A DNA stretch of 64,000 bases from Candidatus Firestoneibacteriota bacterium (GTDB lineage Bacteria; Oederibacteriota; D2-FULL-39-29): positions 3,727 to 67,726 of the forward strand of contig CAITEH010000052.1 of the NCBI GenBank assembly GCA_903891415.1, written 5' to 3'. The notes under the pieces were generated by a model. The model was not told the origin of the DNA. It ran no database searches and was given only the letters and a program-made list of their open reading frames with translations. Made by a program: the position numbers and the translations under genes. How positions within the stretch are numbered: the first letter of the stretch is position 1; every line of letters starts with the position of its first letter. This document shows positions 5,141-20,317 of this stretch, piece after piece.

Positions 5141-6205
5141 ATGTTTACGATAAATGATCTGCTCAGGGTTTTGTTTGAAAAGAATGCCTCGGACCTTCAT
5201 CTGACTTCGGGAACTTCGCCGGCTTTACGCATTGACGGGGATATTATTACCACGGAACTTGAAAAGCTTACCCCGGAAACCTGTCAGGAACTTGTTTACG
5301 GCGTATTAACGGATGAACAAAAAGAAAAATTTGAAAGAGAGAATGAACTGGATCTGGCTTTCGGCGTGAAAGGCCTGGGCCGGGTCAGAATGAATGTCTT
5401 CCGGCAGCGGGGCGCGGTGGCTGCGGTAATGCGTAACATTCCTTCCAAAATTGCGACTTTCGAAGAACTCGGTTTGCCTGAAGTTGTAAGCACCACCATT
5501 GTAAAGCTCCCCAAAGGCCTTGTGCTGGTAACCGGCCCTACCGGTTCCGGTAAATCCACTACTATTGCCTCAATAATAGATTATATTAACAGTGATAGAA
5601 AAGGGCACATTATTACCGTTGAAGATCCCATAGAATATGTTTATCATCACAAGAACTGCATAGTTAACCAGCGGGAGATAGGTGTTGATACGCCGAACTT
5701 TACCTCGGCTCTACGGCATATACTCCGGCAGGACCCCGATGTCATAGTCATAGGTGAAATGCGCGACCTGGAAACTATACAGGCGGCGCTGACCATAGGT
5801 GAAACAGGGCATCTTGTTTTTGGCACGCTCCATACTACCGATGCCGTGCAGTCCATAAACCGTGTAATAGATGTTTTTCCGCCGCACCAGCAGCAGCAGG
5901 TAAGGACGCAGCTTTCCTTCACTTTACAGGCGGTTCTTTCCCAGACCCTGCTTCCCAAGGCCTATTCCGGCGGGAGGGTCGCGGCAATTGAAGTTATGAT
6001 GCCTAATTCCGCCATCCGCAACCTGATCCGCGAAGATAAAGTCCACCAGGTCTATTCGACCATGCAGACTTCCGGGGAATCCGGCATGATCACGTTAAAC
6101 CAGTCGCTTTTTAATTTATACCAGAAACAGCTGGTTACTTATAATGATATTATGTTTGCTTCTCTTGACCAGAAAGACCTGCAAAGAATGGTCAAAGGTG
6201 TTTAG
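5141..6205 (+). CDS. pilT: Type IV pilus retraction ATPase PilT
   Basis: ASDLHL, GPTGSGKST, LRQDPD, AIRNLIRE signature. Confidence 0.96.
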   Translation: MFTINDLLRVLFEKNASDLHLTSGTSPALRIDGDIITTELEKLTPETCQELVYGVLTDEQKEKFERENELDLAFGVKGLGRVRMNVFRQRGAVAAVMRNIPSKIATFEELGLPEVVSTTIVKLPKGLVLVTGPTGSGKSTTIASIIDYINSDRKGHIITVEDPIEYVYHHKNCIVNQREIGVDTPNFTSALRHILRQDPDVIVIGEMRDLETIQAALTIGETGHLVFGTLHTTDAVQSINRVIDVFPPHQQQQVRTQLSFTLQAVLSQTLLPKAYSGGRVAAIEVMMPNSAIRNLIREDKVHQVYSTMQTSGESGMITLNQSLFNLYQKQLVTYNDIMFASLDQKDLQRMVKGV

Positions 6206-6216
6206 GAGGAAAACTA

Positions 6217-7431
6217 ATGGCTGTATTTAATTATAAAGCGAAAACCGCGGAAGGGGCCGTTATTTCCGGAGTAATGGAAGCCGAGAACGAAAGAGTACTG
6301 ACGGCCAAACTTAAAGGCCAGAAACTGACCCTGGTGTCCTCGGTGCTGGAAAAAAAGAAAAGACTCGCGGGCAGGGGCGGTAAGGTCACAGTTAAAGATC
6401 TCTCGGTCTTCGCCCGGCAGTTCGCGACCATGATCTCGGCGGGCGTGCCTGTCTTGCAGTCACTTAACATTATCTATGAACAGGTCGAAAGCCGTAAATT
6501 AAAAGAATGCCTCGGAAAGATCAGGGAGGATATCGGGCAGGGGCAGACCCTCTCGGACGCCATGGGTAAACATCCTGAAATATTTTCAAATCTCTTCGTG
6601 AATATGGTGAAAGCCGGGGAAACCGGCGGTATTCTTGACGGCATACTGCAGCGTCTTTCCACTTATCTGGAAAAAGCGGACGCGCTCCGTAGAAAGGTTA
6701 AATCGGCGTTAACTTACCCCGTGATGGTGCTTGGCGTGGCTTTGGGCGTTACCGTCTTTCTTATGGTGGCGGTTTTACCGACTTTTAAGACTGTTTTTGA
6801 AAGTTTCGGCTCAAAACTTCCGGCTCCCACGCAGTTTGTTCTGTCTATTTCTGATTTTATGCAGTCCTTTTTTAAACCGCCGCAGGTCTTTATTGAAGCG
6901 GGAGTGGTAGCGGGTGTCTGGTTTCTGCTGAACCGTTATATGAAGACCAGAAAAGGACAGCTCCAGTGGGATGGTATTCTGCTAAAAATGCCTATGTTCG
7001 GTATTTTAATAAAAAAAGTAGCCGTTGCTAAATTTGCCCGTACTTTAGGCACCCTTATTAAATCCGGTGTGGCCATACTTGAAGCCCTTGAAATTACCGC
7101 GAAAACCTCCGGTAACCTGGTTGTAGAAGAGGCCATTATGAAAGCCCGCGCGGCTATCCGTGAAGGTGAAAATATTACCGGGCCGCTTAAGGACGCCGGT
7201 ATATTCCCCGTGATGATAATTCAAATGGTCTCGGTGGGTGAAGAAACGGGTACTATTGATGATATGCTTATCAGATGTGCGGATTTCTATGACGATGAAG
7301 TTGATACTGCTGTCGGCGGTTTGACCTCAATGCTGGAACCTCTTATTATGGCCTTCCTCGGCGTGGTTATCGGCGGTATCGTTATCGCCATGTTCTTACC
7401 TATGTTCTCCATGAGTGAAGTTGTAGGTTAA
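6217..7431 (+). CDS. pilC: Type IV pilus platform protein PilC (GspF family)
   Basis: RQFATMISAGVP, AGETGG, KSALTYP, GEETG, EP..MAFLG. Follows pilB-pilT. Confidence 0.94.
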   Translation: MAVFNYKAKTAEGAVISGVMEAENERVLTAKLKGQKLTLVSSVLEKKKRLAGRGGKVTVKDLSVFARQFATMISAGVPVLQSLNIIYEQVESRKLKECLGKIREDIGQGQTLSDAMGKHPEIFSNLFVNMVKAGETGGILDGILQRLSTYLEKADALRRKVKSALTYPVMVLGVALGVTVFLMVAVLPTFKTVFESFGSKLPAPTQFVLSISDFMQSFFKPPQVFIEAGVVAGVWFLLNRYMKTRKGQLQWDGILLKMPMFGILIKKVAVAKFARTLGTLIKSGVAILEALEITAKTSGNLVVEEAIMKARAAIREGENITGPLKDAGIFPVMIIQMVSVGEETGTIDDMLIRCADFYDDEVDTAVGGLTSMLEPLIMAFLGVVIGGIVIAMFLPMFSMSEVVG

Positions 7432-7446
7432 GAAAAGGACTTTAAA

Positions 7447-8448
7447 ATGTATGCCGGTTCCAAAATTATAGGCAAAGATCTTCGTTTGATCAACAGCAAG
7501 CTTATGTCTATTGCTTCCCGGGCAGACAAGTTAGTGCCTGGAATTAAAAGCCATTTGTTAAGCGGGGGTAAAAAACTACGCCCGTCGCTTTTAATGCTTG
7601 CTTACCGGGTCTTTCGTTCCGGAAATAAAGACCGCTATTTGAAACAGGCTCTTGATTTTGGAGCCGTAATAGAGACCCTGCACAATGCTTCCTTATTGCA
7701 CGACGATGTAATAGAAGATTCCGGTATTAGAAGGGGCCGGCGGACCATAAATTCTCTTTATGGCAATAAAAAAGCAGTTCTTGCCGGGGATCTTTTGACC
7801 GCTTTTTCCATGTCTCTCCTTTACAACCTTAAGAGTTCAAAAACAATAGAAAAAACCCTGCGGCTCTTTGGCCGCGCTGCGCGGGAGCTTGTAAAAGGCG
7901 AAATAGAGGAAGTAACCGGCCTTTTTAAGTTAACTATCTCCGAAAAAGAATATTTTGACGTTATTACCGGTAAAACTGCGGGGCTTTTTATGGCAGCTTC
8001 TGAAGCGGGCGCGGTCCTGGCGCGCGCCGGTAAAAAGCAGACAAAAGCTTTAAAAGAATACGGCCGGCATCTCGGTCTGGCTTTTCAGATCATAGATGAT
8101 ATCCTTGACCTTACGGGAACGGAAGCGGTGCTGGGTAAACCGGCGGCCTCAGACCTGCTCGAAGGCAAATTCACTTTACCGGTTATTTACGCGCTGCAAA
8201 AAGCGGATAAAATAGAGAAAAATAGAATTAAGAATATTATGTTGAATATCCGCAAAGGAAAAAAAGAAGCCGGCGGGGTGGAATATATAGTTGAAGTAAT
8301 TAAAAAATACGGCTGCCTGGATGCGGCTTATGTCAAAGCGAAGGAACAGGTGAATAAAGCTATTTTCGCGTTAGAAAAACTTCCGAAAAATGAATTCAGG
8401 CGCGCGCTCGAAAAAGCCGCTTCTTTTGTTTTGGAACGCGAGCGCTAG
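7447..8448 (+). CDS. Polyprenyl diphosphate synthase
   Basis: GGKKLRP, LHDDVIED..RRG, KTA, FQIIDD..D, GK...SDL.EGK.TLP. Confidence 0.92.
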   Translation: MYAGSKIIGKDLRLINSKLMSIASRADKLVPGIKSHLLSGGKKLRPSLLMLAYRVFRSGNKDRYLKQALDFGAVIETLHNASLLHDDVIEDSGIRRGRRTINSLYGNKKAVLAGDLLTAFSMSLLYNLKSSKTIEKTLRLFGRAARELVKGEIEEVTGLFKLTISEKEYFDVITGKTAGLFMAASEAGAVLARAGKKQTKALKEYGRHLGLAFQIIDDILDLTGTEAVLGKPAASDLLEGKFTLPVIYALQKADKIEKNRIKNIMLNIRKGKKEAGGVEYIVEVIKKYGCLDAAYVKAKEQVNKAIFALEKLPKNEFRRALEKAASFVLERER

Positions 8449-8479
8449 TTAAAATAAAAATTATGAAGGAGAAAAAGAA

Positions 8480-9649
8480 ATGGATATCAAGTCAAAACTG
8501 AATATGAACGTAATTAACGCCCCCATGTCGGGAATAAGAAAGATCTCGGATATGGTCATGCAGATGAAGGATGTTATCAGGATGGACCTGGGAGAACCTG
8601 ATTTTGATGTTCCTGAACACATTAAAGAAGCGGCTATTTATGCCATAAAAAGCGGTTTTTCCCATTACACTCCCGGTCCCGGAATTTTGGAACTTAGAAA
8701 GGCCGCGGCTTCCAGGTTTAAAAATGATAACGGCCTGGACTATGACCCGGAAACGGAGATCACGGTCACGCAGGGCGGTGTCGGCGCCATATATTCCGCG
8801 CTTCAGACCCTGGTCAATCCCGGGGATGAGGTGATCGTTTCTGACCCGGTTTGGCCTGTCTACCTCGGGATACTTGGAATTCTGGAAGCAAAGCCGGTAC
8901 TTGTCACGCTTAAAGAAAAAGACGGCTTTAATATGCTGCCGGAAGAAGTTAGCAGGAAGATCACCTCTAAAACCAAGTGCATTGTAATAAACAGCCCCAA
9001 CAATCCGACGGGCGGGGTTATGACCGAAGAGAATATAAAAGCCGTTGCAAAAATAGCCCGGGAAAAAGGAATATTTGTTCTTTCCGATGAGTCCTATGAA
9101 AAACTTATTCTCGGCGGAAGAAAACATCTCTCGATAGGGTCGCTTCCCGGCATGCGCGACCTGACGGTTACGCAGTTTACTCTTTCAAAAACCTACGCGA
9201 TGACAGGGTGGAGAATAGGTTTTGCGGTGGCGAACAAGGAGCTTTCCGCGGGTATAAGAAAGGTTTCGCTCTATACAATTACCCATGCAAACTCTGTCGC
9301 GCAAAAAGCGGCGGTCGCGGCGATAAACGGCCCGCAGGATTGTGTCGCAAAAATGGTACAGGCCTTTAAGGAGAGGTCCAAGATCCTTGTGGACGGTTTA
9401 AATGCCACCGGCAAGATCACGTGCATACAGCCGGAAGGGGCTTTTTATGCTTTTGCAAATATTTCCGGGCTGAAAATGAAGTCAGAAGAATTCGTGCTTA
9501 GAATGATAAAAGAGGCCGGGGTCTCGGCCGTAAATGGTTCTGCTTTTGGCGAAAGCGGAGAAGGTTTTGTCAGATTCTGTTTTGCTAACTCGCATGAAAA
9601 TATCCGGGAAGCGGTCAAGAGGATAAGCGCGTTTACCGCTAAACTCTGA
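8480..9649 (+). CDS. PLP-dependent class I/II aminotransferase
   Basis: GEPDF, NSPNNPTG, SDESY, SKTYAMTGWRIG, GAFY. Confidence 0.93.
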   Translation: MDIKSKLNMNVINAPMSGIRKISDMVMQMKDVIRMDLGEPDFDVPEHIKEAAIYAIKSGFSHYTPGPGILELRKAAASRFKNDNGLDYDPETEITVTQGGVGAIYSALQTLVNPGDEVIVSDPVWPVYLGILGILEAKPVLVTLKEKDGFNMLPEEVSRKITSKTKCIVINSPNNPTGGVMTEENIKAVAKIAREKGIFVLSDESYEKLILGGRKHLSIGSLPGMRDLTVTQFTLSKTYAMTGWRIGFAVANKELSAGIRKVSLYTITHANSVAQKAAVAAINGPQDCVAKMVQAFKERSKILVDGLNATGKITCIQPEGAFYAFANISGLKMKSEEFVLRMIKEAGVSAVNGSAFGESGEGFVRFCFANSHENIREAVKRISAFTAKL

Positions 9650-9697
9650 TCTTAAAATTTGCAGCATAGGCCCTGTTACAGGGCCTGGGGGGAATAT

Positions 9698-9877
9698 ATG
9701 GGCAATATAGGGTTACCTGAACTGGTAGTTATCCTGGTTCTCGCTCTCTTGATCTTCGGCGCCGGAAAACTTCCGGAGGTCGGAAGATCCCTGGGCAATT
9801 CTATCAAAGAATTTAAAAAAGCAATGAAGGATGACGCTCCGGATACCGGCAAAGCTTCAAAAAAAGCCAAGAAGTAA
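9698..9877 (+). CDS. tatA: Twin-arginine translocase TatA/TatE
   Basis: [32 protein letters not shown] 9698 after GGGGGAA. Confidence 0.93.
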
Positions 9878-9891
9878 GTGAAAGTGTGGAA

Positions 9892-10009
9892 GGTGCCGGG
9901 AGAGGATAAGTAAGGGCTTTTCCTAATACCTATCACCCCGAACCCAGAACCTGCGCTTTAATAGGTATAACCATGAACCATTCATGCTTCAGGTTCATGG
10001 CCCTGCACC
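9892..10009 (+). ncRNA. Candidate structured leader RNA (four-way junction)
   Basis: Manually paired P1 9892-9900/10001-10009, P2 9903-9924, P3 9926-9968, P4 9971-10000. No match to a riboswitch class I recognise. Confidence 0.35.
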
Positions 10010-10035
10010 CGGAAACGCGTGGTGCGGGGTTTTTT
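10001..10035 (+). terminator. Intrinsic terminator immediately upstream of the kinase RBS
   Basis: CCCTGCACC / GGTGCGGGG stem with inner CG-GAAA-CG, then TTTTTT. AAGGAG follows at 10038. Confidence 0.7.
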
Positions 10036-10051
10036 ACAAGGAGAAGTGTTT

Positions 10052-11539
10052 ATGTCCAAACAAAAAGGTTATGTGGCTTTTGATCTCGGAGCTGAGAGCG
10101 GCCGCGGGATCTACGGGTACATAAAAAACGGGAAAATAAAACTCGAAGTCCTGCGCCGGTTCCTGAATGAACCGGTTGAGCTTAACGGCACGCTTTACTG
10201 GGATCTGCCTTTCTTTTTTAATGAGCTTAAAAAATCTATTATGCTCTGTGACCCGTCGCTCAAGAAAAAAATAAGCAGTATCGGGATAGATACCTGGGGC
10301 TGTGACTATGGCCTGCTTGATAAAAAAGGAAATCTTCTTTCTAATCCGGTACATTACCGGGATAACCGTACCAAGGGTATGATAGAAAAATTCATGAAAG
10401 CGGCCGGCCGGGAAAAGATCTACGGGATCACAGGCATTCAATATAATTTTTTCAATACCTCCGTGCAGCTTTTCGCGCAGCACCGGAAAGATCCGTCCAT
10501 ACTCAAGAGCGCGGCCACGCTGCTTCAGATGCCTGATCTTCTGGGTTACTTTTTTACGGGGAAAAAGGCCTCCGAACAGACCATTGTCAGCACTTCCCAG
10601 CTTTATGACCCCGGGAAAAAGGATTGGTCGCCGTATCTATTAAAGAAGGCCGGGGTACCTGCGAAAATAATGCTTAAACCCAAACCGGCGGGAACAACCC
10701 TCGGGCCGGTCAAGAAAGATATACTGGAGGAAATGGGGGCTGCGAAGATCAAGGTTGTCAGTGTGGGCGGCCATGATACGGCAAGCGCCGTGGCGGCAAC
10801 ACCGGCAAAAAGGGGTACCAACTGGGCCTATTTAAGTTCCGGTACCTGGTCGCTTATCGGTATAGAGACCGAAAAGCCGGTCATAAATGAAACCACGCTT
10901 GCTAATAACTTTACGAACGAAGCCGGAGTTTACAACACCAACAGGCTTATTAAGAATGTCATGGGGCTCTGGCTGATACAACGCTGCAGAAAAAAATGGA
11001 TGGATGACGACCGTAAGGAACTAGCCTACCCGGTCCTGGTGAAAGAAGCAGAAAAAGCAAAAGGCTTCAGGGCTTTCGTAGACCCCAATGACCAGAGTTT
11101 CTATTCTACTCCCGATATGCCCGGGGCAATTAACGCTTTTCTTAAAAAGACCGGGCAAAAACCGCTGAAAACGCGCGGAGAGATCATCAGATGCATCATG
11201 GAAAGCCTGGCTTTTGAATACAGGGCCAGTATAGAGGTGCTGGGAAAACTAAAAGGCAATAAAATAGAAGTATTGCATATACTTGGCGGAGGATCGCAGA
11301 ACGGCCCTCTTTGCCGGTATACTGCCGATGCCTGCGGAATAAAGGTGATCGCGGGTCCGGTTGAAGCCACGGCTCTGGGCAACATTGTGGTCCAGGCAAT
11401 AGTTTCAAGAGAGCTAAAGGACCTGGAACATGCCAGGGCGCTTATTAAGAACTCTTTCCCGCTCAAAGTCTATCAACCCGCGAATAACTCCGGATGGGAT
11501 GAGAACTATTCAAAATTTCTTGGTTTGAAAAAGGTATAG
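10052..11539 (+). CDS. rhaB: Rhamnulokinase/fuculokinase family (FGGY) sugar kinase
   Basis: FDLGAESGR, IDTWGCDY, HYRD.RT, GHDTASAV, LSSGTWSL, FTNE.G, GGGSQN, GPVEATA.GN. ATG 10052 after AAGGAG. Substrate uncertain. Confidence 0.85.
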   Translation: MSKQKGYVAFDLGAESGRGIYGYIKNGKIKLEVLRRFLNEPVELNGTLYWDLPFFFNELKKSIMLCDPSLKKKISSIGIDTWGCDYGLLDKKGNLLSNPVHYRDNRTKGMIEKFMKAAGREKIYGITGIQYNFFNTSVQLFAQHRKDPSILKSAATLLQMPDLLGYFFTGKKASEQTIVSTSQLYDPGKKDWSPYLLKKAGVPAKIMLKPKPAGTTLGPVKKDILEEMGAAKIKVVSVGGHDTASAVAATPAKRGTNWAYLSSGTWSLIGIETEKPVINETTLANNFTNEAGVYNTNRLIKNVMGLWLIQRCRKKWMDDDRKELAYPVLVKEAEKAKGFRAFVDPNDQSFYSTPDMPGAINAFLKKTGQKPLKTRGEIIRCIMESLAFEYRASIEVLGKLKGNKIEVLHILGGGSQNGPLCRYTADACGIKVIAGPVEATALGNIVVQAIVSRELKDLEHARALIKNSFPLKVYQPANNSGWDENYSKFLGLKKV

Positions 11540-11542
11540 CAT

Positions 11543-12211
11543 ATGAAAGCAGGAGAAAAAAAGATGTTAAAAGACCTTATCGCCGCGGGAAAAAAACTGG
11601 CGGCAAAGGGGATCGTAGTCGGGCCCGGGGGAAACTTAAGCATCCGGACCGGCAAGACCATAATTATCAAGAAATCCGGAGCCTGTATGGAAGACGGGAC
11701 CGGGGCCTCATATATGGAAGTGGAGCTTAACTCAAGAAAAGCGGTTTGCGGCGCAGGTAAACCTTCCTGTGAAACCCCCATGCACACCGCTTGCTACAAA
11801 ACCAGGCCCGAGATAAAATGTGTCATGCATACACACGGGCCCTACGCCCTGGGTTATAGCATGCAAAATAAACCTTTGAAGTCATTTTTCCCGGACCATA
11901 CGACCGTTATCGGTTCGGATGTTCCCGTCCTGAGTTTTGAATATCCTTCCAGCGAAGAACTGGCGGCTAAGGTCGCTAAGGCCCTCAAAAAATACAACGC
12001 GGTCATACTGCAAAACCACGGCCTGCTTACGATCGGGGAAAATGTTGATGAGGCGTACTACCGGACCCTGCTAATAGAATCTATTATAAAGGCCGCCTTT
12101 ATAGCAAAGGCCTTCGGCGGGGTGAAACTTTTGAGTCCAAAGCGTATTGCCGTGATGGATGGCTCGGATGAAGGCGCCTACAGAAAAGAGATGGTAAAAA
12201 AAAGAAGGTAA
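11543..12211 (+). CDS. Class II aldolase/adducin family protein
   Basis: GGNLS, KPSCE.PMH, HTH, LQNHG zinc ligands. Confidence 0.9.
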   Translation: MKAGEKKMLKDLIAAGKKLAAKGIVVGPGGNLSIRTGKTIIIKKSGACMEDGTGASYMEVELNSRKAVCGAGKPSCETPMHTACYKTRPEIKCVMHTHGPYALGYSMQNKPLKSFFPDHTTVIGSDVPVLSFEYPSSEELAAKVAKALKKYNAVILQNHGLLTIGENVDEAYYRTLLIESIIKAAFIAKAFGGVKLLSPKRIAVMDGSDEGAYRKEMVKKRR

Positions 12212-12212
12212 A

Positions 12213-13469
12213 ATGAAGGTAAAACTCGATTACGGAAAAAAAGGGCTGGTAATTGACCTGAAAGGCAGAAAACCTGTAAAATTATTTGCGATGAAAAACT
12301 CAAAACCCCTGTCCGGCCCGAAGAAAAAGATAAAAAAAACATTATTAAATCCCCTCGGGAAGAAACCGCTTTCCTCCCTGGTCAAAAAAACCGACAGGAT
12401 CTGCATAGTTATTTCTGATAACACCCGTCCGGTACCCAATAAAATTATCCTTCCGGAGATATTGAAAGTCCTTAGAGCCGCGGGAGTTCCTGAAAAAAAC
12501 ATTTTTATTTTAATAGGGAACGGCACTCATTCTGCTTTGAATGACAAGGCAATAAAAGAGCTCGTGGGAACGGGAATAGCAGGCAAATACAGGGTCTTTA
12601 ATCACAACTGTTTTAACAAGAAAAGTCAGAAGTATCTGGGCAGGGCGGGGAGAGCTGAACTTTGGATAAATAAAAAATATTATGAAGCGGACTTTAAGAT
12701 CGTTACCGGTTTTATCGAACCGCACTTTATGGCGGGATTTTCCGGTGGCAGAAAAGGTGTTTGCCCGGGGATTGCCGGTTATGAGACTATTAAGACCTTC
12801 CACTCGGCAAAATACCTGGCTTCGAGATACGCCGTCTCCGGAAATATCAAGAACAATCCCTGTGATAAACTCGCGGAAGCCGTCTCAAAAAAAGCAGGCG
12901 TGGACTTTCTTGTTAATGTTACCTTGAACAGCGAAAAAAAGATAACCGGAGTTTTTGCCGGCGATTGGAAAAAAGCGCATAAAAAAGGCATGAACTTCTG
13001 CCTCCGGCATGTCAGAGATACCGTAAAAAAACCTCTTGATGTCATAATAACCAGCGCGGGCGGGTACCCCCTGGATCGCAATTTTTATCAGACAGTCAAA
13101 GGCATCGTCGGCGCTTCCGAAGTGGTAAAAAAAGGCGGGGAGATAATAATAGTCTCCGGCTGTTCCGACGGCGTCGGCGGCAAAGATTTCAGAGAACTGC
13201 TCGAGGGTCTTACCTCACCGCTGGCTTTTCTGAAAAAGATATTCGGCAAAAATTATTTCCGCGCCGAACAATGGCAGGTACAGGAACTGGTCAAGGGGCT
13301 GTTAAAAGCAAAAGTAAAACTTTTCACAGAAGGCCTCTGCCTCGAAGATAAACACCTCTGCAAAGTAAATATTGTAGACGACATAAACCGTGAAATAGCA
13401 TTAATACCAAAAGGTAAGACCATAGGTGTGATCCCGAACGGGCCGTATATCTTAACGAAGTTAAGATAA
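12213..13469 (+). CDS. larA: Nickel pincer (NPN)-dependent lactate racemase LarA family
   Basis: SDNTRP, GTH, EPHFMAGFSGGRK, HS, GGYPLD.NFYQTVK. Confidence 0.9.
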   Translation: MKVKLDYGKKGLVIDLKGRKPVKLFAMKNSKPLSGPKKKIKKTLLNPLGKKPLSSLVKKTDRICIVISDNTRPVPNKIILPEILKVLRAAGVPEKNIFILIGNGTHSALNDKAIKELVGTGIAGKYRVFNHNCFNKKSQKYLGRAGRAELWINKKYYEADFKIVTGFIEPHFMAGFSGGRKGVCPGIAGYETIKTFHSAKYLASRYAVSGNIKNNPCDKLAEAVSKKAGVDFLVNVTLNSEKKITGVFAGDWKKAHKKGMNFCLRHVRDTVKKPLDVIITSAGGYPLDRNFYQTVKGIVGASEVVKKGGEIIIVSGCSDGVGGKDFRELLEGLTSPLAFLKKIFGKNYFRAEQWQVQELVKGLLKAKVKLFTEGLCLEDKHLCKVNIVDDINREIALIPKGKTIGVIPNGPYILTKLR

Positions 13470-13483
13470 ATTAAATATAGTTT

Positions 13484-13680
13484 ATAAGGTTTTTAAGGTT
13501 CATAAAGTTTGTAAAGTCTTACATTAGGGTAGTATTGAAAGAATGTTTTGTAGTTGCTCGATTCATCGAGCCGCTCAATGAATTGAGCAACTACAAAATA
13601 ATTTACTGCATAATATACTTCAACGATTGTGGAACGTTACAAACTTTACAAACCTTATGAACGCACGTTATGAACTTATT
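13484..13680. repeat. Inverted nonamer-array cassette containing a REP doublet
   Basis: Left ATAAGGTTT TTAAGGTTC ATAAAGTTT GTAAAGTCT. Right GAACGTTAC AAACTTTAC AAACCTTAT. Homologous to 15693-15832 and 42911-43218. Confidence 0.8.
13546..13598. repeat. GTAG-type REP doublet (REPIN-like)
   Basis: GTAGTTGCTCGATTCATCGAGC and inverted GTAGTTGCTCAATTCATTGAGC separated by 1 nt. Perfect 14-bp outer inverted repeat. Confidence 0.8.
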
Positions 13681-13697
13681 TTCCGGAGGAAAATGCT

Positions 13698-14642
13698 ATG
13701 AAACCACAGAACTTTGAAGTTAAAAACGCGAAGATCAAGGCCGCTTTTCAGGAACTCAAACAGAAAGCGCCCGGTAGATTAAAAAAAAGGTTAAATCTTT
13801 CCTGGAGTAACTGGGGGTTTGGGCTTGAAGCTCTGGCTGCTTCGGCAAGAAGGCTCAGCAGGTATAGGGTGCCGTTCATTGAACTTCACGGGAACCATTA
13901 CGGGCCTGACCTTGGTTACAGACCGGCCGAGACCTTGAGGATCCTCAAGGATAATAATGTAAAGGTCGGAGGGATCTGCGGGATGTTTTCGGCTGATAAT
14001 GATCTCTCCAGCAACCGTCCCCTGCAGAGGCAGAATGCCCTTGACTATTTGAAAAGAGAGCTGGATTTTGCATATAAAGTCGAAGCTAAATATATACTTG
14101 TTGTACCGGGAGCGGTGGGAAGGCCGGTACCTTATGACAGCACTGAGTTTGACAGAAGCGTGGAAACCTTAAGGATGGTGGCCGGCCTTTTCCAGAAAAG
14201 CAAAATAAGGGCGGCAATAGAACCGATCCGCGCGGCGGAAGTTAGCTTCATACATACCATCGGGGAAGCAAAAAGATATATAGAAGCTGTTGACCATCCG
14301 GGGATCAGATTTATAAACGGGGATGTTTATCATATGCAGGTCGGGGAAGCTCATATAGGCGAAGCTCTTCTCGAAGCCGGAAAAATGCTGACCAACCTCC
14401 ACATGGCGGACAGTAACAGGTGCGCCCTCGGTGACGGAGCCCTCGATCTGGATACAATAATAATGGCACTTTATCTTATCGGTTTTAATAATGACAGCTG
14501 CTTTTTTACCCCGGAACCTTTGGGGCCCGGAGGCGATCCCTACCCCGCGATGAACGGCAAACCTGATCAGATAATATTGGATACGCTGGTCAAACAGACG
14601 GCGGAGTATTTCAGGGAACGGGAAACGGAATTACTAGGGTAA
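13698..14642 (+). CDS. Ketose 3-epimerase-like TIM barrel (D-psicose/D-tagatose 3-epimerase family)
   Basis: EPIRAAE, GDVYHM, HMADSNR and final EP match the family metal-binding motifs. Confidence 0.8.
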   Translation: MKPQNFEVKNAKIKAAFQELKQKAPGRLKKRLNLSWSNWGFGLEALAASARRLSRYRVPFIELHGNHYGPDLGYRPAETLRILKDNNVKVGGICGMFSADNDLSSNRPLQRQNALDYLKRELDFAYKVEAKYILVVPGAVGRPVPYDSTEFDRSVETLRMVAGLFQKSKIRAAIEPIRAAEVSFIHTIGEAKRYIEAVDHPGIRFINGDVYHMQVGEAHIGEALLEAGKMLTNLHMADSNRCALGDGALDLDTIIMALYLIGFNNDSCFFTPEPLGPGGDPYPAMNGKPDQIILDTLVKQTAEYFRERETELLG

Positions 14643-14765
14643 AAAAAGCCCGTAGATCCTAAGCAGATAGAAATAATCAAATATCTTCATATCGTCGAAA
14701 CTCTGTGCGTAAGAGGAGAATTTCATTAAAAGCAATGAGCAGTATGCTTTTTTTTATGAAATATC

Positions 14766-14840: not shown

Positions 14841-15692
14841 ATGAGGCTCCGTATTACCGTTGTACTTGCAGTGCTTTTGCTCAACTCTCCTTTTTTTTGC
14901 GCGGACAAGTTCCCGCCGGAAACTCAGGATATCCGGGTAAGATCTTCCCTGGACGGGGATATGCAGCCCTGCGCTTTATTTGTCCCCGGGGATTATAGCG
15001 CGGCTAAGCTCATCCCGCTGGTGGTGATACTTCATTCCTGGGGGTCTGATTATACTCCGAGTAAACCGGTCCTGCTTGAAGCCAAAAGAAAAGGCTGGAT
15101 AGGTATTTGCGCCAATTACAGGGGCGGTAACCAGGGCAAGAATGCCTGTGCTTCGCCGCAGGCGGTCCAGGATATAGTTGATGTTGTAGATTATGCCTGC
15201 AAGCAGTATAACATAGACAAAAACCGCATTTATTTATTCGGGGCTTCCGGCGGCGGGCATATGGCAATGATGATGGCGGGCCGGCACCCGGAGCTCTGGG
15301 CCGGGGTTTCAGAATGGTGCGGCATATCCGATCTGGCAAAATGGTCTTCCGAGCACCGGAGGGGCAAATCACTGTGTACCGATAAAAAGTTTTCTGAAAC
15401 GGTATTTGAAAATTTGAAGGCCATTTGCGGTGGCGTCCCGGGAAAAAATGAAAAAGTTGACAAAGAATATTTTGAAAGGTCTCCGATAAATTTTATCGAG
15501 AACGCAAAAGACCTGAATATTTCTTTTAACCACGGAAAGAACGACGAACTGGTGCCGTATCACCACAGCGAAGATGCGTATAATAAATTGCTGGCCGCGG
15601 GCAGCAAAAAAGCCGTTTTATATTTGCATGATAACCAGCATGCCGCGGACACGAAAAAAGCTTTCGATTGGCTGGAAAAACAGACGAAATAA
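14841..15692 (+). CDS. Secreted alpha/beta hydrolase (S9-like)
   Basis: Signal-like N-terminus, LHSWG, GASGGG nucleophile elbow, HG..DELVP, terminal His. Confidence 0.82.
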   Translation: MRLRITVVLAVLLLNSPFFCADKFPPETQDIRVRSSLDGDMQPCALFVPGDYSAAKLIPLVVILHSWGSDYTPSKPVLLEAKRKGWIGICANYRGGNQGKNACASPQAVQDIVDVVDYACKQYNIDKNRIYLFGASGGGHMAMMMAGRHPELWAGVSEWCGISDLAKWSSEHRRGKSLCTDKKFSETVFENLKAICGGVPGKNEKVDKEYFERSPINFIENAKDLNISFNHGKNDELVPYHHSEDAYNKLLAAGSKKAVLYLHDNQHAADTKKAFDWLEKQTK

Positions 15693-17315: not shown

Positions 17316-17693
17316 TTGGGGACGTGGCGAATAGCCGCTTTCGCCGTTGGCGGAGGAGGAAAGTCCGAACTCCAGAAGGCCGGGATGCCGCGTAACACGC
17401 GGTCGCTTGAAGTTAAAGCTTCAAGTGAAGGAAAGTGCCACAGAAAATATACAGCCCCGTACCACTCACTACGTTCGGGTACAGGGTGATGGTGAAAAGG
17501 TGGTGTAAGAGACCACCGGCTGCCGGGTAACCGGCAGCGCAGGGTAAACCCCATCCGGAGCAAGACCAAATAGGGGGAAGTCAATAAGGTGGTGCCGCCT
17601 GGTTCCCCGGGTAGGTCGCAAGAGGCGCATGGCAACATGCGTCCTTAGAGAAATGGCTATTAGAACAGAATTCGGCTTACGGCCCGGTCCCAA
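17316..17693 (+). ncRNA. rnpB: RNase P RNA (type A)
   Basis: GAGGAAAGTCC (17356-66), GGAAAGTGCCACAGAAA (17430-46), GAGCAAGACCAAATAG, ACAGAATTCGGCTTAC (17665-80). P1 formed by TTGGGGAC / GTCCCAA. Confidence 0.95.
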
Positions 17694-17700
17694 AAAAATA

Positions 17701-17833: not shown

Positions 17834-18076
17834 ATGAAAACTGTTCAAGCTATAACTGTTACCATCCCTAATGAACTTGCCGCGGAATTGAACCGTTTGC
17901 AGAAAACGGAAATGAAAAATTGCAGCAGCATAGTGGCGGAAGCTCTAAAGGAATATATCGAATGGCGCCAATTCAAAGGACTGCAGAAGGAAGCTGCTGC
18001 TGTGGCAAGAGCAATAAATGTTTATGATGAAACCGACGTTGAAAGACTTGTGCATGAATATAGAGCAGGGAAATGA
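17834..18076 (+). CDS. Ribbon-helix-helix (CopG-like) antitoxin
   Basis: 80 aa, ITVTIP beta strand plus two helices. 4-nt overlap with the PIN gene. Confidence 0.82.
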   Translation: MKTVQAITVTIPNELAAELNRLQKTEMKNCSSIVAEALKEYIEWRQFKGLQKEAAAVARAINVYDETDVERLVHEYRAGK

Positions 18077-18567
18077 AGAAATTTAAGGTTGTTTTTGATA
18101 CGAACGTCTATATTTCAGCAACAGTCTTTCCCGGGGGCATACCAGAAGAACTCTTAAAACTGGCTTTTTCCGGCGAACTTTTACTCGGTGTCTCAAAAGA
18201 TATATTGGAAGAGCTTTCAAATGTCTATCTTAGAAAATTTCATTTAAACAGCCGGGCTGTCAATGACCAGGTCAAAAGGATCTTGAACAATGCTGAATTG
18301 ATTGAACCGGGTGAGAAGATAACTGCAATAAGATCCGACAAGAGCGACAATATGATATTGGAATGCGCCGTTGCATACGACGCCGATGTAATAGTCTCAG
18401 GTGATTCGCATCTTTTAGAACTGAAAAAGTACAGGAGTATTTCCATACGGAAACCTGCAGATTTCTTGCGCGTGTATGGTTCCCTCGATGAAAAGAAAGG
18501 AAATATTACAGGAGAAAAACGGTCAAAATACCTGGTAAAAACGCGGGGAAGCCGAATCCGCGTTTAG
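18073..18567 (+). CDS. PIN-domain putative toxin
   Basis: VVFDTNV, ILEEL, SDNMILECA, IVSGDSHLL. Confidence 0.9.
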   Translation: MKKFKVVFDTNVYISATVFPGGIPEELLKLAFSGELLLGVSKDILEELSNVYLRKFHLNSRAVNDQVKRILNNAELIEPGEKITAIRSDKSDNMILECAVAYDADVIVSGDSHLLELKKYRSISIRKPADFLRVYGSLDEKKGNITGEKRSKYLVKTRGSRIRV

Positions 18568-18746
18568 AACAATAGACAATAGAAAATTGAAAATAAGCTG
18601 CATTTGAAAACCCGGTATTGCCGGTATGAAAAATAGGTTGCGGAAATTATATTAAACTAAATTAAAAAGAGGTACGGCTTTTGAGTTCGTCCCTCTTTTA
18701 ATTTCTCTATTTTCTATTCTCGGTTGTTCTATTGCTCTGTTCTAAA
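18563..18746. repeat. Inverted heptamer-array cassette with central bidirectional terminator
   Basis: TTTAGAAC / GTTCTAAA outer IR. AATAGAC AATAGAA AATTGAA versus TCTCTATT TTCTATT GTTCTATT. Hairpin AATTAAAAAGAGG..CCTCTTTTAATT at 18660-18703. Confidence 0.75.
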
Positions 18747-20220
18747 AGGGATTTTCCCCTTTGTAAAGAGTGCCCGCGGGCAGGGGATGCGATATTTCTT
18801 TTACCCCGAGCATCTTTACTGCTTCAAATAATGTTTTTCCGCAGTGTTTAAAAGCAAGTGCTGTGTGATGCGGGTACCGGCGGCCGATAAGAATATGCCG
18901 GTAAAATCTATCCATCTCTTTAACGGCAAGGACTCCGATGCTGCCGAAAGACTTCGGATCAATATCAAGGGATTCTCCTTCTGCTATATAGCTTCTAAGA
19001 TCCCCCTCTATAGCGCCCTGTAATCTGAAAATAGTTACAGGCCCGCTCTTAAGTTTTCCTTCCATAGAACCTCTTGTGATATTTGGTTCTGCATCCGGTT
19101 CCAGGAGCCGTTTCATTATTAATTGATATTTAAGGTTCCACCCGTCGAGCAGGCAGGAAGCGGTATTGCCGCAGTGAAAGCCCATGAAAAGGTCTTTAGG
19201 CGCGTAACCGGAAACTTTTTTACCCGCGGCCTTGTACATATCGTGCGGTACCGTGTTATTAATATCCAGAAGTGTTACCGGATAGTCAGTCGCGGTACTG
19301 GCCATATATTCCGAAAGGGCGCCGTAGATATCTACTTCACAGGAAACCGGTATGCCCTGTGCGGCCAGGCGGGAATTATTATAACAGGGGACAAAACCAA
19401 AATACTCCTCAAAAGCCGGCCAGCATTTATTGGCGAAGACGCCGAACTCCGAAGCGCCCAGATTTTCCCGCATGAATTTCTTCAGCGCAACCTCAAATTG
19501 CGCCTGTTTCGCCACCAGGTCAGGATAAATATTTTTCTTTCCGAGTTCCAGGGCTATAGCTTTTGCCGTTTCTTTTACTTCGGGGTTTTTTTCCGCTTTT
19601 AAAAATATATCATACAGGTCGAGTTCGGAATTTTCCATGACCTCGACGCCGATATCGTAAAGTTGTTTGATCGGGGCGTTACAGGCAAGAAAATCCTGCG
19701 GGCGCGGCCCAAAAGAGAATATTTTTAATTTTTTGATTCCGAGCAAAACGCGGGCAACGGGGATAAAATCCGCGATCATCTCCGCTACCTCGCCCGGAGT
19801 TCCTACGGGAGATTCCGGGATATACGGCCGCAGGTGCCTGAGATTTAAATTGTAGGAAAGGTTGAGCATGCCGCAGTAAGCATCGCCCCGGCCGTTGATG
19901 AGATCCTTGCCTGTATCTTCAGCCGCGCCCGCGACCATTACGGGACCGTCAAATTTTTGAATAAGCAGGGTTTCCGGAGTTTCCGGCCCGAAGTTCCCGA
20001 GATAAACGACAAGCGCGTTACAGCCTTTGGACTTGAGCTCTTCCAGGGCTTTTGCAAGATCTTTTTCACTCTCAACAATAGTTCCTATATTGGCAATGCT
20101 GAGCTTTTTCTTTTTGCATTCCTCTGCAACTTTATCCCTTCTTTTTCTGGAGAGCTCAATGGGGAAACACCCGCGGGAAACCGCTATGATCCCGAGCTTT
20201 ACTTCAGGTACGTTGTTCAT
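18742..20220 (-). CDS. L-fucose/L-arabinose isomerase family protein
   Basis: SRGCFP, GNFGPE, SCEVD metal ligands, GFHCGN, YPHH. ATG 20220 after GGAGGA. Confidence 0.85.
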   Translation of the reverse strand: MNNVPEVKLGIIAVSRGCFPIELSRKRRDKVAEECKKKKLSIANIGTIVESEKDLAKALEELKSKGCNALVVYLGNFGPETPETLLIQKFDGPVMVAGAAEDTGKDLINGRGDAYCGMLNLSYNLNLRHLRPYIPESPVGTPGEVAEMIADFIPVARVLLGIKKLKIFSFGPRPQDFLACNAPIKQLYDIGVEVMENSELDLYDIFLKAEKNPEVKETAKAIALELGKKNIYPDLVAKQAQFEVALKKFMRENLGASEFGVFANKCWPAFEEYFGFVPCYNNSRLAAQGIPVSCEVDIYGALSEYMASTATDYPVTLLDINNTVPHDMYKAAGKKVSGYAPKDLFMGFHCGNTASCLLDGWNLKYQLIMKRLLEPDAEPNITRGSMEGKLKSGPVTIFRLQGAIEGDLRSYIAEGESLDIDPKSFGSIGVLAVKEMDRFYRHILIGRRYPHHTALAFKHCGKTLFEAVKMLGVKEISHPLPAGTLYKGENPF

Positions 20221-20317
20221 CAGATCCTCCAATTGACCCGCAAGGCAGGGTCCGGTACTGCAGGTACAAGTTTAATGGAGCCGCTCAATAATTGCAAGGG
20301 AAAAACCGGTTTTTAGG

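Follow-up and report, generated by a model that had tools for sequence, protein, structure and literature searches.

Why should a gene for a probable nickel-pincer, lactate-type racemase share an operon with the kinase and aldolase of a deoxy-sugar pathway? The question is raised by positions 10052 to 14642 of the window, the 64,000-nucleotide stretch of DNA analyzed here, which belongs to contig C52 of genome G000, a 2.5-Mb, 86.7%-complete Firestonebacteria assembly whose nearest public relatives are records titled Candidatus Firestonebacteria. An earlier note had read this segment as a possible four-gene route for a deoxy or rare sugar, ending in a ketose 3-epimerase. All four genes are confirmed and the note's interpretation holds in part. 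The unit is instead a three-gene operon encoding a FucK/RhaB-type kinase, a FucA-type aldolase and the racemase LarA. Comparison with relatives gives roughly an even chance that this operon joins deoxy-sugar cleavage to a racemase linking L-lactate to D-lactate oxidation.

Gene content of the operon

The three genes are as follows:

10052..11539, + strand: kinase of the FGGY family, L-rhamnulose/L-fuculose kinase type, 495 aa (domain and structure matches)
11543..12211, + strand: FucA-like class II aldolase of a rare, lineage-specific branch, 222 aa (domain and structure matches)
12213..13469, + strand: LarA-group nickel-pincer 2-hydroxyacid (lactate-type) racemase, 418 aa (domains and residues)

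As the earlier note had observed, these genes abut within 4 nt of one another, the gaps being 3 nt between kinase and aldolase and 1 nt between aldolase and LarA; the next gene, encoding a TIM-barrel protein, follows LarA after 228 nt. The note's reading of the first two genes as an FGGY kinase and a class II aldolase yielding dihydroxyacetone phosphate (DHAP) and lactaldehyde from 6-deoxyketoses is likewise borne out by homology: the pair is of the FucK/RhaB and FucA type and would yield L-lactaldehyde.

The kinase contains FGGY_N and FGGY_C domains and aligns with the rhamnulokinase model TIGR02627 over its entire length (1-454 of 454) at 448.7 bits, below the equivalog cut-off of 527.95, the next family (E. 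coli-type fuculokinase) scoring just 130 bits. Its only two solved relatives at E<=1e-20 are 4C23, an L-fuculose kinase from S. pneumoniae (324 bits), and 2CGJ, a rhamnulokinase from E. coli (300 bits). No other rhamnulokinase-type kinase is encoded in G000, and a homologous kinase adjoins RhaA in other Firestonebacteria. The start codon was placed at ATG 10052, in agreement with the earlier note; it has an AGGAG motif 8 nt upstream and gives an N-terminus (MSKQKG) that is the same in the sister species; a longer frame from GTG-10019 was rejected, as it would run through a terminator-like hairpin.

For the aldolase (Aldolase_II, PF00596, 155 bits), the best solved relatives are the L-fuculose-1-phosphate aldolases 2OPI and 4C24. 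Its catalytic Glu and three His zinc ligands (HxH...H) align with those of the FucA structures, within the motifs PSCE...H, HTH and NHG. The protein scores under every named aldolase, epimerase and decarboxylase equivalog cut-off (best PRK08333, 124 bits versus 267) and its branch is rare, with 18 relatives at E<=1e-30 among 5.8 billion proteins searched. Weak matches of the aldolase and the TIM-barrel protein to OtnC and OtnI had prompted consideration of a four-carbon acid-sugar route (OtnK/OtnC/OtnI-like), which was rejected on three grounds: the kinase resembles FGGY rhamnulokinases, both proteins score far under the cut-offs, and the TIM-barrel gene is not conserved.

Residues, substrate class and cofactor genes of LarA

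LarA, the only homolog of its group in G000, consists of Lar_N (PF09861, 198 bits) and LarA_C (PF21113, 90 bits) domains. Its residues were assigned by alignment to L. plantarum LarA (5HUQ) and in a 138-sequence alignment, both of which agree with the earlier note that every residue binding the cofactor, nickel-pincer nucleotide (NPN), has been retained. All cofactor and catalytic positions are kept, namely D69, R72, H106, H171, K181, H197, Y292, Q293 and K296, which correspond in the same order to D72, R75, H108, H174, K184, H200, Y294, Q295 and K298 of L. plantarum LarA; in the latter, Lys184 tethers NPN, His200 is a Ni ligand, and His108 and His174 are catalytic.

Urdiain-Arraiza et al. (PMC11770544) predict the substrate in this family from the residues at four positions: lactate racemases read F-F-W-E/Q there, gluconate epimerases read E-V-A-H, and malate racemases have Lys as the last of the four. 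The tetrad of the operon LarA reads F-M-W-Q and fits the lactate racemase signature F175-F176-W358-(E/Q)359 at three of four positions. Its Met also occurs in LarA of Isosphaera pallida (LarA_Ip) and in LarAs linked to lactate dehydrogenase (LDH) and electron-transfer flavoprotein (Etf) genes, and sampled LarAs within Etf/GlcD lactate-dehydrogenase operons carry FMWE or FFWQ. LarA scores 394.4 bits against the NCBIfam model Ni_dep_LarA, under the cut-off of 460; this is still its top model, with MAR next at 331 bits. The best PDB match, at 315 bits, is LarA_Ip, a broad-spectrum enzyme acting on lactate, 2-hydroxybutyrate and glycerate, with L-lactate and 2-hydroxybutyrate as best substrates (PMC11851776). 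On the best reading of these residues, LarA would be a racemase of lactate or short-chain 2-hydroxyacids, most probably of the lactate type. The earlier note had proposed either interconversion of lactate enantiomers or epimerization of a sugar acid; the tetrad and the comparative contexts favor the former, and the latter is unsupported.

Genes for NPN synthesis were also sought outside the run, from which the note had reported larB, larC and larE missing. Other G000 contigs encode LarB (293 bits) and a LarC1-LarC2 fusion, and no LarE reaching the cut-off was found in the 86.7%-complete G000 assembly. LarE is present in two further relatives and in G001, the sister species in the same genus, whose genome is 98% complete. 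Since the larE region of G001 can be followed on G000 contigs C19 and C51 until C51 ends, some 900 bp short of larE, with nothing matching beyond, the absence of larE from G000 is likely due to an assembly gap. The start of the fused larC1-larC2 gene is overlapped by a gene for a DUF116 protein (252 aa; 1555-2313, - strand) on the 2.4-kb contig C79 (L003).

LarA beside deoxy-sugar genes in other genomes

The genomic contexts of 170 LarA loci (31-82% identical), drawn from relatives, genome contigs and metagenome contigs, were screened. Eight distinct loci have LarA directly beside RhaEW, the bifunctional rhamnulose-1-phosphate aldolase/lactaldehyde dehydrogenase, with a gap of 14 nt in two of them, and one (L076) has the order rhamnulokinase-RhaEW-LarA-rhamnosidase. 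The named RhaEW-LarA loci are from Planctomycetota, save one Firestonebacteria genome (L026), in which the two genes are divergent. RhaEW has been shown biochemically to turn L-rhamnulose-1-phosphate into DHAP and L-lactate, in a study that does not mention a racemase (Rodionova et al. 2013, PMC3870299). Another arrangement is seen on metagenome contig L183, where GH4, a class II aldolase, LarA, EtfB, EtfA, a GlcD-type dehydrogenase and rhamnulokinase are encoded together. Etf, GlcD and LarA genes occur together in many other loci as well, and flavin adenine dinucleotide (FAD) dehydrogenases and Etf were already known as common neighbors of group-1 LarAs (Desguin et al., PMC7583248, Table S1).

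On well-supported branches of a FastTree phylogeny, the LarAs linked to deoxy-sugar genes have at least four origins. Judged by gene context, the recurrent logic appears to be an L-lactate-forming step, LarA and often then a D-type FAD lactate dehydrogenase. No publication linking a lactate racemase to rhamnose or fucose catabolism was found, the candidates sharing both terms having been judged mostly by title.

History of the operon site

A backbone of pilB-pilT-pilC-prenyl synthase-aminotransferase, transaldolase-Zn-ribbon and nudix-mraZ-mraW is common to the order, and the interval between aminotransferase and transaldolase is variable in content. G000 and G001 have tatA, the kinase, the 222-aa aldolase and LarA there. 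G007 has a kinase (46% identical), a 594-aa aldehyde:ferredoxin oxidoreductase (AOR) and a 202-aa PRK08660-type aldolase, without LarA; in genomes of the type of G006, an order-level relative, LarA stands by itself and is divergently oriented to a GH123-like gene. Metagenome contigs L175 and L173 carry AOR, the 202-aa aldolase and LarA (57% identical), L173 also transaldolase. L175 was not placed in any genome, and its LarA groups with the LarAs resident at this site in Firestonebacteria. These arrangements suggest that LarA and the kinase are both old residents of the site, linked in relatives by the AOR-aldolase pair. AOR and the 202-aa aldolase form a fixed pair (6377-8796 on L137 of G007; 4-2377 on L175), accompanied by rhamnulokinase in G007 and by LarA on L175.

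The kinase-aldolase-LarA order itself, whose conservation the earlier note had proposed to examine, is kept in the sister species and on metagenome contig L172, and is conserved within the genus alone; the LarAs of the two species are 82% identical. Neither of the findings that the note had named as refuting its reading, a genome lacking larBCE or an order shared with no relative, was therefore obtained, larB and larC being present in G000 and larE in G001.

Sugar supply and lactate metabolism in the genome

Neither an isomerase nor a lactaldehyde dehydrogenase lies in the run, as the earlier note had stated; two isomerase genes are found outside it. RhaA is encoded on contig C18 (L151), where in the region 6126-11031 it stands alone just downstream of the genes for pyruvate formate-lyase and the activase of that enzyme, away from the kinase and aldolase, and a FucI-like gene lies in the window at 18742-20232. 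The FucI-like isomerase is syntenic in the sister species and has a weak, 85-bit match to the sulfoquinovose isomerase SftI. Its distribution in the phylum is patchy; a 67% identical protein in G015 is encoded 4 kb from another LarA homolog. Rhamnosidase-like (GH78) tblastn matches occur at nine places on eight G000 contigs.

The only LDH-like gene in G000 encodes a malate dehydrogenase, and neither L-LDH nor LutABC was found in this genome. One GlcD-type FAD dehydrogenase is present, on contig C39, and the only Etf pair adjoins an acyl-CoA dehydrogenase, not a lactate dehydrogenase. With no L-LDH, no LutABC and a single GlcD-like dehydrogenase, L-lactate would need racemization before oxidation.

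Two assignments bearing on lactaldehyde were rejected. The best RhaW-like short-chain dehydrogenase/reductase (SDR) of the genome, on contig C62, was considered for the absent lactaldehyde dehydrogenase, yet it passes the model for sorbitol-6-phosphate dehydrogenase and its gene sits in a different operon; an iron-dependent alcohol dehydrogenase (Fe-ADH) on contig C24, considered as a FucO orthologue, scores 135 bits versus 523. The SDR gene is part of a second sugar operon (L265, 5991-9831, - strand), comprising a zinc-dependent alcohol dehydrogenase, the sorbitol-6-phosphate-dehydrogenase SDR, a 430-aa protein that matches neither Pfam nor NCBIfam families, and a class II aldolase.

Proposed role and alternative explanations

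By homology, the kinase would phosphorylate L-rhamnulose and/or L-fuculose, and the aldolase would split the resulting ketose 1-phosphate into DHAP and L-lactaldehyde. The ketose would be supplied by RhaA from another contig, perhaps also by the FucI-like isomerase 5 kb downstream. L-lactaldehyde would then be oxidized to L-lactate, a step that may be carried out by the ferredoxin-linked AOR in relatives and by the RhaW domain of RhaEW in Planctomycetota. LarA would finally turn L-lactate into D-lactate, the only form of lactate that the genome appears able to oxidize. Comparison with other genomes makes this lactaldehyde-lactate-racemase link plausible, incomplete as it is in G000. On a broader scale, the chances seem evenly balanced that LarA constitutes a recurrent, previously undescribed finishing module of 6-deoxyhexose catabolism, recruited independently in several phyla, which would convert L-lactate formed via RhaW, AOR or an aldehyde dehydrogenase (ALDH) to the D-lactate used by FAD-type D-lactate dehydrogenases; one partly eroded case would then be the operon of Firestonebacteria.

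If the link is true, it provides a concrete role for a LarA racemase in a family where the roles of most homologs are unknown and where the best-studied close relative, LarA_Ip, has no assigned pathway. Many anaerobes appear to have D-specific FAD lactate dehydrogenases only, and a racemase bridge would permit them to oxidize the C3 half of a deoxy-sugar rather than excrete it as propanediol. In uncultured phyla, the degradation of polysaccharides from plants and algae would also be tied to the supply of nickel and of the NPN cofactor.

Several observations weigh against the proposed role. Apart from ProA, no ALDH was found in G000 or in the 98%-complete G001, nor were AOR or a molybdenum-dependent aldehyde oxidoreductase, so that the lactaldehyde-to-lactate step has no candidate enzyme in the genus. 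Fe-ADH and GldA-like reductases are present, and such enzymes may reduce lactaldehyde to 1,2-propanediol. The kinase, aldolase and LarA each score under their own NCBIfam equivalog cut-offs, and their exact order recurs in just one other species. Moreover, LarA persists at this site in G006, a genome in which searches found neither a kinase of this type nor RhaA, a FucI-like gene or AOR, so that LarA has a role independent of the sugar genes. The G006-type LarA between aminotransferase and transaldolase, with no sugar genes nearby, the lack of aldehyde-oxidizing enzymes in the genus and the reductases would all fit an adjacency without any present metabolic link, an explanation that we consider possible, if on the doubtful side. 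LarA would then be a general lactate racemase long resident at the site, merely co-transcribed with the kinase and aldolase, possibly as the relic of a kinase-AOR-aldolase-LarA operon that no longer has AOR, and lactaldehyde would be reduced to 1,2-propanediol. Pyruvate formate-lyase beside RhaA is consistent with such a fermentative life style, and the 222-aa aldolase shares just 26% identity with the 202-aa aldolase that relatives pair with AOR, which therefore points to replacement of the module. However, the 1-nt spacing and the conservation in two species, with 82% LarA identity, argue for selected co-expression, and LarA recurs independently, in at least four clades, beside deoxy-sugar enzymes that form L-lactate. 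Action of LarA on another small 2-hydroxyacid of the pathway, for example L-glycerate (from the L-glyceraldehyde of a non-deoxy ketose phosphate) or 2-hydroxybutyrate, is unlikely, despite the broad spectrum of the closest solved relative, LarA_Ip (PMC11851776), and despite the Gln that the operon LarA has at the T359 position, where this residue is tied to a preference of LarAH43 for glycerate (PMC11770544). Operons for lactate dehydrogenase and Etf contain LarAs with an identical or nearly identical tetrad, relatives of the kinase and aldolase act specifically on 6-deoxy sugars, and the missing aldehyde-oxidation step would apply equally.

The proposal in the earlier note that all four genes form one rare-sugar route, with a 3-epimerase widening the range of ketoses fed to the kinase, is highly improbable. 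The TIM-barrel protein (AP_endonuc_2, 89.8 bits) is distantly related to ketose 3-epimerases, and a third relative probably has the aldolase, LarA and TIM-barrel genes (P0242, P0003, P0123) on one 10,236-nt contig, to judge only from contigs of equal size; P0003 and another LarA relative, P0004, are 75-79% identical to the operon LarA. Yet the TIM-barrel protein scores about 50 bits against solved ketose 3-epimerases and 78 bits against the psicose-epimerase model NF051856, the cut-off of which is 300, so that "3-epimerase" is a superfamily-level label. The gene is parted from LarA by a 228-nt spacer of dispersed repeats. In G001 and on L172 the esterase gene follows LarA without a TIM-barrel gene between, the G001 interval holding a small pilin-like open reading frame (ORF). 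The G001 copy (81% identical; L274, contig C67, 5255-6193) instead lies between a tetratricopeptide-repeat (TPR) protein and a ribulokinase-AraD pair, and the corresponding cluster on G000 contig C5 has no such gene. Among 61 genomes of the phylum the gene is confined to this genus, yet proteins sharing 70-75% identity with its product are encoded in Clostridia, Spirochaetota, Verrucomicrobiota and Lentisphaerae, in a family without a curated equivalog; this narrow distribution in the phylum, with such similar proteins in other phyla, suggests a recent acquisition. The TIM-barrel gene is an unrelated, recently relocated neighbor outside the unit.

Features flanking the operon

The operon is surrounded by the following features:

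9698..9877, + strand: tatA, 59 aa, directly upstream of the operon (translation; PDB TatAd/TatA matches, E 5e-12)
9999..10037, + strand: terminator-like GC hairpin with U-run (folding energy of -23.9 kcal/mol with a z of -2.3)
13470..13697: spacer of nested palindromic, dispersed repeats similar to repetitive extragenic palindromes (REP-like), the end of the three-gene unit
13698..14642, + strand: xylose-isomerase-like TIM-barrel protein, 314 aa, distantly ketose-3-epimerase-like, the relocated neighbor outside the operon
14841..15692, + strand: alpha/beta-hydrolase esterase
18742..20232, - strand: FucI-like sugar isomerase, 496 aa, with a Fucose_iso_C domain, a possible ketose supplier

From the end of the hairpin and U-run it is about 7 nt to the AGGAG ribosome-binding site and 14 nt to the ATG of the kinase. 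A dedicated riboswitch in front of the kinase was rejected: there is no Rfam match, the sister species has a 75-nt spacer in which the leader is not conserved, and a dispersed repeat that also occurs on other contigs makes up part of the leader. Short palindromic REP-like repeats lie in the intergenic spacers at 13470-13697, 9969-10010 and 14674-14712 and recur on many G000 contigs, pieces of the first on more than 20; the repeat at 9969-10010 overlaps the leader of the kinase. The location of the TIM-barrel gene beside ribulokinase-AraD in G001 suggests a pentulose-forming role. Farther downstream, a full-length bacterial RNase P RNA of class A (17319-17695, + strand, 281.6 bits) is separated from the isomerase gene by an insertion of a small ORF and a PIN-domain gene, likely a toxin-antitoxin pair (17834-18567, + strand), which is absent from the sister-species contig L172.

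Comparison with known systems

The kinase branch and the zinc-dependent class II aldolase are alike in this operon and in the E. coli RhaA-RhaB-RhaD and FucI-FucK-FucA pathways and S. pneumoniae FcsK/FcsA (4C23/4C24). In contrast to those pathways, the isomerase is encoded in the genome outside the operon, the aldolase belongs to a rare divergent branch, orthologues of AldA and FucO are absent, and a LarA racemase is the third gene.

The Lct operon of Acetobacterium woodii comprises LctBCD, an Etf-coupled lactate dehydrogenase, and the racemase LctF. Its logic, in which a LarA racemase feeds a GlcD-type FAD lactate dehydrogenase, is directly seen in L183, L049, L057 and others, whereas the present operon has no adjacent Etf or GlcD gene and the only GlcD-like gene of the genome lies on another contig.

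With LarA_Ip (LarAH2/Sar; PDB 9EID/9EIA) and L. plantarum LarA (5HUQ), the operon LarA shares the two-domain fold family and all NPN, catalytic and carboxylate-binding residues. The tetrads are F-M-W-Q in the operon LarA, L-M-W-Q in LarA_Ip (L174/M175 as named in PMC11851776; W-Q as read from the alignment here) and F-F-W-T in L. plantarum LarA. The operon LarA sits in a sugar-kinase operon, whereas for the LarAH2 group Desguin 2020 (PMC7583248, Table S1) gives no genomic context. Compared with the RhaEW rhamnose pathway (PMC3870299), G000 has no RhaEW and uses a stand-alone FucA-like aldolase, for which no dehydrogenase partner was found; RhaEW itself, which delivers DHAP and L-lactate from L-rhamnulose-1-phosphate in one protein, adjoins LarA in eight of the loci screened here.

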